Positions 31,266 to 33,013 of a stretch of 64,000 nt of DNA are shown here, one piece after another. The notes under the pieces are model-generated. The model did no database searches. It was given only the letters and a program-made list of their open reading frames with translations, and had not been told where the DNA came from. A program made the position numbers and the translations under genes. Positions within the stretch are counted from its first letter, which is position 1. Each line of letters opens with the position of its first letter. Source of the DNA: a virus (lineage: Duplodnaviria > Heunggongvirae > Uroviricota > Caudoviricetes); the IMG/VR virus record IMGVR_UViG_2541047712_000002; one strand, written 5' to 3'.

Positions 31266-31528
31266 TAGGAGCTTTTCGGCCATGATTTAACCACTATATT
31301 ATGGCCATTTTTTACCCCCCCCCTTATCTTCACTGAAAAATTTTGATAGCACGCAATAAGGGTTAGGAGTGATGTTAGATTTTCTTCAGGCCCATAGAAT
31401 GATTCCATACTTACTATGTATGGAATCATTACTAAAAATGAGTTACTTTGACTCTTGATCCTATAAGAATCTATGCCTAATATACTGTTTACTTATACAG
31501 TGTATCGACGTAACTCGGTGATTGTCAT

Positions 31529-32632
31529 ATGAAAAATAGCTTTGACAGAGCACGCGCAGCGGAGAACACCTCAAAAGAGGCGATTGAGTATCTCGAAAGA
31601 GCATCTCAAATGCAGGCCGTTATGATCTCGCAGGTTAGCAATGACATGAGATTCTCAGACGCATTCATGTTATTCACTCGCTTATCTCTGCTGATAACAA
31701 GACGTCGACCAGAGATCGCTGTTCATTGTATTTTGATACATGTTTTGCCGCACATTGCAGATATAAAAGTAAGTGACATTAATAGGTTCATGGTGAACCA
31801 ACTGGTCAACCCACTAATACTGGATGGCAAAATTGTTATGGGCCGCCGCGTTTTCTCTCTGATGAAGCAGTTCCTTAGCTGGTGTGCCTTCCAGGGGATG
31901 ATCGACGTATCACCATTAAACGATATGTCACTGAATAAAGTTGCCGGTGGCGCAAAGCCAACACCTCGCGAACGGAAGCTGACCGACGCAGAGGTATGGG
32001 TGTTCTGGAATATCTGGGACTACTTCAATGTGTGCGCAGGTACAAAATGGGCAGCCAGGCTATGTCTTGTATCCGCAAGACGACCTGATGAAGTACTGCG
32101 GGCCAGAAAAAGTGAGTTCAACCTTCAGCGTGGAGTTTGGAATCAAGGCAAGAGGAACAAATCTGCCCGTGAGCATTCGCTGCCTTTAAGCACATTAATG
32201 CGCACATGTATTGAAGAGTTGTTCGAATATGGTAAAGACAGCCAGTGGCTTGTGCCTTCGAATAAAAAAATCGGGAAAGACCTTCCTATGTCTAAAGTGG
32301 CAATAGCCCAGGCATTACGTCGTATTCTGGAACGACCAGAACTGATGGAGCTTGAGCCATTTACACCCCGAGATTTGCGCCGTACTGCGCGTAGTTACTT
32401 CCCAGCATTAGGCATAAGCCAGGAGGTATCACGTAAAATCATGAACCACAGTCTTGAGGGGATAGATCGGGTCTACGACCGGCACGATTATATGGACGAG
32501 ATGCGAGACGCCTTAGAAAGTTTCTCGACGTACATCGCATCAATCGTAGAGCAACCCGATTTAGACGAAATTGACCACAAATTTAAGGGAGATCGTCTAT
32601 CAACAGAGCTTATTCGTGTAAATTTTTCATAG
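31529..32632 (+). CDS. tyrosine recombinase / integrase (P4-like family)
   Basis: 367-aa ORF; catalytic-domain motifs ARRPDEVLRARKSEF, FTPRDLRRTARSY and C-terminal NHSLEGIDRVYDRHDY (candidate nucleophile Tyr). Confidence 0.5.
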   Translation: MKNSFDRARAAENTSKEAIEYLERASQMQAVMISQVSNDMRFSDAFMLFTRLSLLITRRRPEIAVHCILIHVLPHIADIKVSDINRFMVNQLVNPLILDGKIVMGRRVFSLMKQFLSWCAFQGMIDVSPLNDMSLNKVAGGAKPTPRERKLTDAEVWVFWNIWDYFNVCAGTKWAARLCLVSARRPDEVLRARKSEFNLQRGVWNQGKRNKSAREHSLPLSTLMRTCIEELFEYGKDSQWLVPSNKKIGKDLPMSKVAIAQALRRILERPELMELEPFTPRDLRRTARSYFPALGISQEVSRKIMNHSLEGIDRVYDRHDYMDEMRDALESFSTYIASIVEQPDLDEIDHKFKGDRLSTELIRVNFS

Positions 32633-33013
32633 AGACTTTATGGCCTCAACAACCTTTTGTGATGCGCCTTTCTCTTTACCGAATCGCTCGTTATATGCAG
32701 CAAGAACCTGTTTTTCGTCCTCGTTAAGAGGAGCAGTGCCTTCTTTGTATAAAAATGCTGCGAGTTCGGGTTGGCGTTCTTCCAGCACCATCATCATAAG
32801 ACGACTTGGCTCAATACCCAGTGCCAGCGCCAGCGGACGAACCTTATCGATAGGCAAAGGAATTTTGCCGCTTTTAATTAAAGAAAGGTTGTTGGCGTTT
32901 TTATACCCAATTGTTTTGGCTATCTGGGCCTGGCTCATAGGTGAGGATTCAATCAACCCTGCGATAAAAGCAGCGTAGCGACTTTCTATAAATTCAATCT
33001 TGTTATCAGACAT
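32627..33013 (-). CDS. XRE-family helix-turn-helix transcriptional regulator (repressor-like)
   Basis: 128-aa minus-strand ORF with HTH segment MSQAQIAKTIGYKNANNLSLIKSGK; converges on the integrase gene. Confidence 0.5.
   Translation of the reverse strand: MSDNKIEFIESRYAAFIAGLIESSPMSQAQIAKTIGYKNANNLSLIKSGKIPLPIDKVRPLALALGIEPSRLMMMVLEERQPELAAFLYKEGTAPLNEDEKQVLAAYNERFGKEKGASQKVVEAIKSL

Follow-up and report, generated by a model that had tools for sequence, protein, structure and literature searches.

A lox-like inverted repeat upstream of a tyrosine recombinase gene as a candidate multimer resolution site of an SSU5/pHCM2/pMT1-type phage-plasmid

Lox-like recombination systems usually serve to resolve multimers, both on large low-copy plasmids and on the phage-plasmid P1. 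In the ResD/rfsF system of the F plasmid and the Rsd/crs system of the Salmonella virulence plasmid, both on large low-copy plasmids, a plasmid recombinase is paired with a cis site immediately upstream of its gene, present once per replicon. Here we describe a tyrosine recombinase gene and an adjacent inverted repeat on a 64,000-nucleotide stretch of DNA from a member of the Caudoviricetes (IMG/VR record IMGVR_UViG_2541047712_000002), referred to in full as the window. Comparison with related sequences led us to propose, with a probability of roughly 60%, that the palindrome at 31398-31430 is the core site of the adjacent 367-amino-acid recombinase and that the two form a Cre/loxP-like system for plasmid multimer resolution; recombinase binding, the cleavage positions and resolution activity are what we infer from this comparison. 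A megablast search placed the window on non-mobilizable plasmids of approximately 110 kb from E. coli, Klebsiella, Yersinia, Salmonella and relatives. The gene order was grxA, recombinase, helix-turn-helix (HTH) gene, small open reading frame (ORF), CobT-like gene, AAA ATPase and dnaE, with tail, capsid and terminase genes elsewhere, and the backbone is that of an SSU5/pHCM2/pMT1-type phage-plasmid. Tyrosine recombinases are among the persistent genes of the SSU5 supergroup, for which a site was not given (Pfeifer et al., PMC7969092).

Among the closest described counterparts is Cre/loxP of P1, together with Dre/rox, VCre/VloxP and Vika/vox. Shared with Cre/loxP are a phage-plasmid host, a two-domain tyrosine recombinase without an arm-binding domain, a target beside the gene in which a short asymmetric spacer separates two inverted 13-bp arms, one site per genome and a presumed role in multimer resolution or cyclisation. 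Unlike Cre/loxP, the proposed system has no detectable sequence similarity to Cre, a 7-bp rather than an 8-bp spacer, a recombinase of P4/CP4-57 lineage in which the first His of HxxR is Arg, and extra conserved isolated half-sites. XerCD/dif and Xer/cer also resolve multimers at a short palindromic core with a central region of 6-8 bp, using proteins of a similar fold; in contrast to Xer, a single plasmid-encoded protein would here act on identical arms as a homotetramer, with no adjacent accessory sequences evident. ResD/rfsF and Rsd/crs resemble the pair described here but are not known to belong to the same families. The P4/CP4-57 (SlpA) integrases (DUF4102 + Phage_int_M + Phage_integrase) have in common with our recombinase the SAM-like core-binding domain and the motifs ...DLRRT... 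and ...VYDRHDY, and differ from it in that the recombinase has no DUF4102, a simple palindromic target, no integration at tRNA genes, no chromosomal copy, and RDLRR in place of HDLRR. Finally, SPbeta MrpR and phi3T SroF (SroF ranked 38 in our fold search) represent a recombinase fold on dispersed prophage DNA sites, which may be analogous to the isolated half-sites. The two repressors are no longer catalytic, whereas in the recombinase studied here the catalytic residues are conserved and there are only three half-sites, near the core site.

Predictions of the target from palindromes beside tyrosine recombinase genes proved correct in experiments for about half of the Cre homologues examined (PMC10250229). 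As that screen required 8-bp spacers and homology to Cre, it would have missed the recombinase family analysed here. No papers describing the site or its arm sequences were found in open-access text, and searches with the arm sequences returned unrelated primers only. The phage-plasmid papers searched name the recombinase merely as a persistent gene, giving it neither a function nor a site, and one preprint leaves it out altogether. The recombinase/site pair is apparently an undescribed, widely distributed member of the class of simple tyrosine recombinase/site systems.

The inverted repeat and the adjacent recombinase

The site and the gene were located as follows.
31398-31430, no strand: candidate core recombination site of 33 bp (from sequence, repeat scan and upstream conservation)
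31398-31410: left arm of the site, AATGATTCCATAC, perfect over 13 bp
31411-31417: spacer of the site, TTACTAT, 7 bp and asymmetric
31418-31430: right arm of the site, GTATGGAATCATT, perfect over 13 bp
31529-32632, + strand: tyrosine recombinase, 367 amino acids (Pfam PF00589, Phage_integrase, E=4.5e-10)

The initial annotation of this DNA had reported a near-perfect 12-bp inverted repeat at about 31397-31429. The repeat is indeed present, but it is perfect and longer, with a 13-7-13 structure at 31398-31430, and 98 bp separate it from the start codon of the recombinase gene downstream. A repeat finder gave a 16-1-16 quasi-palindrome as an alternative description of the same 33 bp. By our own arithmetic, random sequence of 64 kb would be expected to contain about 0.001 perfect 13-bp inverted repeats with a given fixed spacing.

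Conservation of the repeat was analysed in 80 fetched loci, one genome per species, which comprised 62 members of the recombinase family (45-86% identity) and 18 outgroup integrases. This revealed a 13-7-13 inverted repeat in 62/62 family loci, located 79-288 bp upstream of the tblastn match start, from which distances were counted and which lay up to approximately 47 codons into the gene in some loci. The family loci came from Kluyvera, Y. pestis, Buttiauxella, Chimaeribacter, Pantoea, Rahnella, Erwinia, Xenorhabdus, Photorhabdus, Ewingella, Morganella and Hafnia. With the window site included, the two arms matched without mismatch in 33 cases, with one mismatch in 22 and with two in 8. No equivalent inverted repeat was found upstream of the outgroup integrase genes (0/18). 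The inverted repeat is thus very probably the recombination site of the recombinase, as had been suggested. In K. pneumoniae pKPHS1 (CP003223.1 18053-19537) a reverse-transcriptase gene, annotated retA and possibly part of a group II intron or a retron, was inserted between the 33-bp site and the recombinase gene, so that the site is approximately 2 kb from the gene.

The arm sequence varied with the recombinase. Arms of type A (AATGATTCCATAC) accompanied proteins with at least 57% identity and arms of type B (TGTGACTCCAGAC) accompanied a clade with 45-53% identity; a few intermediates were seen. The two types differed at arm positions 1, 2, 6 and 11, and these differences were mirrored in both arms. 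The bases T3 G4 A5, C8 C9 A10 and A12 were invariant, and C13 was present in 125/126 half-sites. The type-A 33-mer occurred in 809 PLSDB records (approximately 100-120 kb, nearly all non-mobilizable) and the type-B 33-mer in 100 PLSDB records, which were Pantoea, Rahnella and Erwinia plasmids. Each PLSDB record gave two BLAST places because the site is palindromic, which corresponds to one site per plasmid; only a single record had two sites. A complete 113-kb relative plasmid likewise carried a single full site. The recombinase/site module was also present on non-phage megaplasmids of 250-720 kb, and in a Pantoea megaplasmid locus the recombinase was neighboured by transport and metabolic genes only. 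Among 5,426 complete E. coli genomes, 0/256 and 0/218 matches were chromosomal.

The spacer of most relatives followed the pattern YTA-N-TAR, so that asymmetry is carried by three spacer positions only; the TTACTAT of the window deviates from this pattern at its last base. Among five plasmids with identical flanks, which were 99.9% identical to one another, the spacer was inverted in place, reading TTACTAT in three and ATAGTAA in two. In the comparison of the window with NZ_AP023200.1 and CP090273.1, the haplotype with the flipped spacer also has C11 in place of C8 or C9 in a C tract to the left of the site. Across the species of the recombinase family both spacer orientations relative to the gene were found. 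In seven sampled E. coli plasmids of the main group the spacer was CTACTAT in a single orientation. Spacer flips were considered as the cause of the BLAST identity classes in this group and rejected, as the classes were explained by the four bases to the right of the right arm (31431-31434). These bases were hypervariable among near-identical E. coli plasmids (GCTG, AGTA, AGTG, ACTG, ACTA), and the arms were constant where they varied. An invertible promoter switch of the fimS/FimB-FimE type was also rejected, because the arms are only 7 bp apart and form one site, and the flip concerns the spacer alone. As the spacer flips in place while the flanks remain identical, nothing outside the 33 bp depends on the polarity of the site; such free polarity would be tolerable for a resolution site but would not be for an attP with arm sites or for a promoter element. 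The inversion itself could be caused by template switching at a hairpin or by the recombinase.

The assignment of the protein as a tyrosine recombinase was upheld by the PF00589 match (4.5e-10) and by conservation of R185, K211, R284, H307 and Y316. It consisted of a core-binding domain (approximately residues 39-144) and a catalytic domain (approximately 168-340). For PF22022 (Phage_int_M, SAM-like core-binding), with which many relatives are annotated, the window protein scored 22.8 bits, under the 27-bit cutoff. The family profile matched the solved integrase domain 2kj5 (2.2e-12, residues 39-144), identifying a SAM-like core-binding domain, and it also matched the Xer and lambda Int catalytic domains in comparison with PDB profiles. 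The homologue search returned 153 proteins at E <= 1e-5. Among the best 120 of these, which were listed, the family proper ranged from 99% to approximately 44% identity and was without PF13356 (DUF4102, arm-binding), which was present in the outgroups. The nearest relatives beyond the family were P4/CP4-57-type integrases with 26-34% identity, also carrying PF13356.

The domain search gave no Pfam match to DUF4102 in the window recombinase, and the 'P4-like' architecture given in the initial annotation was therefore not borne out. The N-terminus comprised approximately 55 residues in the family and approximately 90 in the outgroups in our alignment, and an AlphaFold (AF2) model (mean pLDDT, the model confidence score, of 87) contained short helices only in residues 1-38. 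The best Foldseek match was lambda Int 75-356, with Tn1549 Int, Xer, IntI and Cre also among the best; Cre structures matched at the fold level only (E about 1e-2). The lack of DUF4102, the helical N-terminus and the alignment together indicate a two-domain tyrosine recombinase which descends from the P4-integrase lineage and has lost the arm-binding domain, and so is not of P4 architecture. In the alignments R185, R284 and Y316 were invariant and K211 and H307 nearly invariant, so that the catalytic residues, including the Tyr nucleophile, were kept across 45% sequence divergence. The expected R-K-H-R-H-Y constellation was recovered as R, K, R, H and Y, with the His of HxxR replaced by Arg (R281) in every family member and retained in the outgroups.

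The symmetric covariation of the arms, the asymmetric spacer, the adjacency to the gene, the single copy, the lack of chromosomal copies and the lack of an arm-binding domain point to a simple lox-like system. The presence of exactly one site per replicon makes multimer resolution its likely job. In such a system one recombinase monomer would bind each 13-bp arm, two sites would synapse as a tetramer, and strands would be exchanged across the 7-bp asymmetric spacer, which would set the polarity of the site, thereby converting head-to-tail plasmid multimers to monomers. After infection the recombinase might also help in circularising or monomerising the phage-plasmid genome, as Cre/loxP does for P1.

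The variable slot, the isolated half-sites and the convergent regulator gene

To the left of the site, the window carried a cargo segment in a slot that extends from grxA to the site.
25254-25502, + strand: grxA glutaredoxin gene, the conserved left anchor of the slot
25478-31397, + strand: cargo segment of 5.9 kb, a chaperone-usher fimbrial operon with an AT-rich leader and tail
26591-26887: PapB-like regulator, in the fimbrial cargo
26999-27640: DUF1120 subunit, in the fimbrial cargo
27693-28361: chaperone, in the fimbrial cargo
28306-30735: usher, in the fimbrial cargo
30750-31265: 171-amino-acid subunit, the last gene of the fimbrial cargo

Most E. coli relatives have only about 100 bp between the end of grxA and the site. 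Homology of the window with its relatives broke near the 3'-end of grxA and resumed exactly at 31398, the first base of the left arm; the last ten or so codons of grxA were unlike the common allele and mark the left crossover. More than 200 close relatives were found, and only 6-7 of them carried the fimbrial block, including six PLSDB records that were 99.9% identical. It is separately acquired cargo that ends exactly at the outer edge of the arm, which agreed with the suggestion of a separately acquired fimbrial block. The recombinase was not found to bracket this block, as the other fimbrial border had no second full or degenerate site within 2 mismatches.

The slot held other contents elsewhere. 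A YafO toxin module occupied it in Salmonella, Enterobacter, Klebsiella and some E. coli, and in Y. pestis pMT1 (NC_005815.1 72678-78468) the F1 capsule chaperone-usher operon caf1R-caf1M-caf1A-caf1 was located immediately distal to the 33-bp site. A second chaperone-usher operon, homologous to that of the window, was found in EC_T6 p2 (NZ_JBWGHW010000003.1) and pTLYA-2 (NZ_CP137164.1). Compared with the operon of the window, it had 43-59% identity over the first four proteins and 27% for the last subunit. On these two plasmids it replaces the backbone from the primase gene onward. Between its end and an isolated half-site, AATGATTCCATACATCACAT, lie 126 bp; an insertion sequence (IS) remnant and then the full site come next. 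The possibility that the arm is part of the fimbrial cassette was rejected, as homologous operons of IncF plasmids share the terminator and have no arm nearby. The site was likewise rejected as the fusion point of large cointegrates (218, 198 and 156 kb), the junctions of which lie elsewhere.

Three isolated copies of the arm, each followed by ATC, were identified in the window.
21680-21695, + strand: half-site AATAATTCCATAC+ATC, with one mismatch in the window and perfect in relatives
22691-22706, + strand: half-site AATGATTCCATAC+ATC, approximately 190 bp upstream of a tRNA-Asn/Tyr/Ser cluster
37446-37461, - strand (13-mer given at 37449): half-site AATGATTCCATAC+ATC, inside the dnaE coding region

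These were the only other arm copies in the whole 113-kb plasmid; all lay within approximately 9-10 kb of the site and pointed toward it. A homologous copy of the half-site at 21680 was kept in Kluyvera and Y. pestis while its flanks diverged. The half-site at 22691 was kept in Kluyvera, Buttiauxella and Klebsiella, and an identical 20-mer abuts the different fimbrial cargo of EC_T6 p2 and pTLYA-2. The 16-mer in dnaE was identical in E. coli, Kluyvera, Y. pestis and Salmonella, with much change in the neighbouring codons. In type-B loci no isolated half-sites were found within 6 kb. The isolated half-sites may bind recombinase monomers. An arm-like motif was also present inside the recombinase gene, at 32123-32135 on the - strand of the window. 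It reads TGATTCCAAAC here and TTGATTCCATAC+AT[C/T], perfect, in Yersinia, Salmonella, Enterobacter, Kluyvera and Klebsiella; it was not counted as a fourth half-site, since it is explicable by the codons for the conserved VWNQG motif.

To the right, the recombinase gene meets a regulator gene.
32627-33013, - strand: helix-turn-helix regulator, 128 amino acids, convergent with the recombinase gene with a 6-bp 3' overlap

The convergent HTH gene of the initial annotation was present as this ORF, though the Pfam HTH_19 match was weak (19.7 bits against a cutoff of 30.2); PHROG phrog_8, 'transcriptional regulator', matched at 1.3e-11. Homologues were detectable only in the phage-plasmid subset of loci, and none was detected in approximately 50 loci of Pantoea, Rahnella, Erwinia and Ewingella in which both the repeat and the recombinase gene are retained. 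As the repeat is kept where the HTH gene is absent, it follows the recombinase and not the HTH gene, which is a neighbour limited to the phage-plasmid subset and not a partner required by the site. The HTH gene diverges from a conserved ORF of 70 amino acids (phrog_2627), and the intergenic region that separates them, at 33014-33264, contained repeated GGTAAG/CTTACC motifs (33042-33060, 33165-33170 and 33231-33236) and a promoter-like site ahead of the HTH gene. It could be the operator region of a cI/cro-like switch.

Alternative explanations for the repeat and the C tract

The initial annotation had offered several roles for the recombinase, of which plasmid multimer resolution fits best and integration of the element or of an island was not supported. 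A phage-type integrase that inserts the element or the island at a chromosomal tRNA gene, with the repeat as the attP core, would accord with the temperate phage-plasmid nature of the element, with the PHROG 'integrase' match and with the relationship to P4/CP4-57-type proteins, which are the closest annotated relatives beyond the family (a partial NF007246 match, and outgroups with PF13356). We nevertheless regard it as highly improbable, given that the arm-binding domain is missing, that the target is perfectly palindromic and changes polarity freely with respect to its flanks, that the module is present on 250-720 kb non-phage megaplasmids, and that no chromosomal copy of the site was found in the 5,426 genomes (0/256 E. 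coli matches). Direct repeats matching a tRNA 3'-end, which had been suggested for the borders, were not found there. It is also improbable, though less remotely so, that the repeat is mainly an operator for the HTH protein or for an autorepressing recombinase, with the half-sites in the same regulon. At 98 bp ahead of the recombinase start, the repeat falls within the likely promoter region; the isolated 16-mers [A/G]ATGATTCCATAC+ATC are conserved at homologous positions, one of them upstream of the tRNA cluster; and tyrosine recombinase folds can be pure repressors, phi3T SroF being among the fold matches. Set against this, most loci with the repeat have no HTH gene, the conservation of all catalytic residues including the Tyr nucleophile argues for catalysis, and there are only three half-sites, all within approximately 9 kb, and none seen in type-B loci. 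In addition, no sigma-70-like promoter was predicted on the + strand at the repeat or the half-sites, where such scans were uninformative. Autoregulation and recombination are compatible and not mutually exclusive.

The slot itself raises the question of whether the site is a point of cargo capture, at which circular DNA integrated at a full site or half-site and was stabilised by loss of one junction. At least five different left contexts come within two bases of an arm's outer edge, namely the grxA spacer, the YafO module, the fimbrial operon of the window, caf1 of Y. pestis and the second fimbrial operon, which abuts the isolated half-site, and backbone DNA is deleted on the far side of the cargo. 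We consider capture unlikely: the opposite border of the cargo has no second site, full or degenerate, the left arm is perfect in every case although secondary-site recombination should import a degenerate arm, and homologous fimbrial operons of IncF plasmids have no arm nearby. Moreover, the same picture could arise if the site were under purifying selection while its flank was exchanged by illegitimate or homologous recombination. Resolution at a Cre/loxP-like site remains our preferred reading, and several observations weigh against it as well. The replacement of the HxxR His by R281 throughout the family means that activity is assumed and not certain, and hhalign of the family profile with Cre gave a probability of only 0.1 (E = 0.45). 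The single nucleotide polymorphism profiles of related plasmids reflected homologous-recombination mosaicism with no identity step at the site, so that they hold no direct trace of a site-specific crossover; the window and pTHO-010-2 were identical through the site and the recombinase gene and diverged only from approximately 32500. Lastly, three conserved isolated half-sites are not predicted by a plain resolution model and hint at an additional DNA-binding role. A speculative extension, which we hold to be doubtful, is that the recombinase occupies the half-sites too and that bound arms define the points at which cargo is joined. The module would then have shaped the acquisition of chaperone-usher operons, including caf1, with the linked possibility that frequent spacer inversion changes which plasmid copies recombine.

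The C tract and the terminator before it lie in the tail of the cargo.
31278-31314, + strand: intrinsic-terminator-like hairpin GGCCAUGAU...AUUAUGGCC (31278-31306) with AUUUUUUA after it, closing the fimbrial operon
31315-31323, + strand: C9 homopolymer, directly after the terminator U-run

The run of nine C had been placed exactly, and the variation in its length that was suggested to exist between isolates was found, the tract being C8, C9 or C11 among five plasmids with otherwise identical flanks. This variation is what would be expected of a slipped-strand contingency switch for expression of the fimbriae or the recombinase, yet such a switch has very little probability in our view. Both the last fimbrial gene and a strong terminator hairpin with a U-run (minimum free energy of the RNA fold -21.2 kcal/mol, z = -5.08 compared with shuffles) precede the tract, the recombinase start is 214 bp downstream of it with the site in between, and the DNA that contains the tract is missing from more than 200 relatives with the same recombinase. 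No promoter was predicted around it. The sole ORF across it (31262-31429, - strand, 55 amino acids) had no family match and is not conserved, because this flank is cargo-specific. An effect of the tract on expression, as originally suggested, is therefore unlikely. Homopolymer lengths are also error-prone in assemblies. We take the tract to be neutral and hypermutable, or else an error in homopolymer calling, and do not regard it as a switch.

Significance and other features of the window

The analysis proposes a maintenance function and an exact site for the persistent 'integrase' of SSU5/pHCM2/pMT1-type phage-plasmids, which are common in clinical E. coli, Klebsiella, Enterobacter, Salmonella and Y. 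pestis, and of large Pantoea, Rahnella and Erwinia plasmids. The site also marks the edge of a variable slot for fimbrial operons, toxin-antitoxin genes and the plague F1 capsule, which aids in reading the evolution of these plasmids. The two enzyme/site specificities (ATGATTCCATAC and GTGACTCCAGAC arms with a 7-bp spacer) are candidate orthogonal recombinase tools.

Two further features were noted outside the recombinase locus.
22898-23512: tRNA cluster Asn-GTT, Tyr-GTA, Ser-TGA, the only tRNA genes in the window, on the phage-plasmid backbone 8 kb from the site
40993-41411, - strand: cspA thermoregulator, upstream of a plasmid-borne cold-shock gene

An Rfam scan of the window returned only the tRNAs and the cspA thermoregulator. 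Ahead of the tRNA cluster was a non-coding stretch of approximately 550 bp (22140-22690), and one relative carried an extra tRNA-Thr. The cspA thermoregulator was a full-length Rfam match (187.6 bits). The cold-shock gene downstream of it was annotated as cspG in relatives, and the surrounding region was present in pNT1F31 and not in pTHO-010-2.

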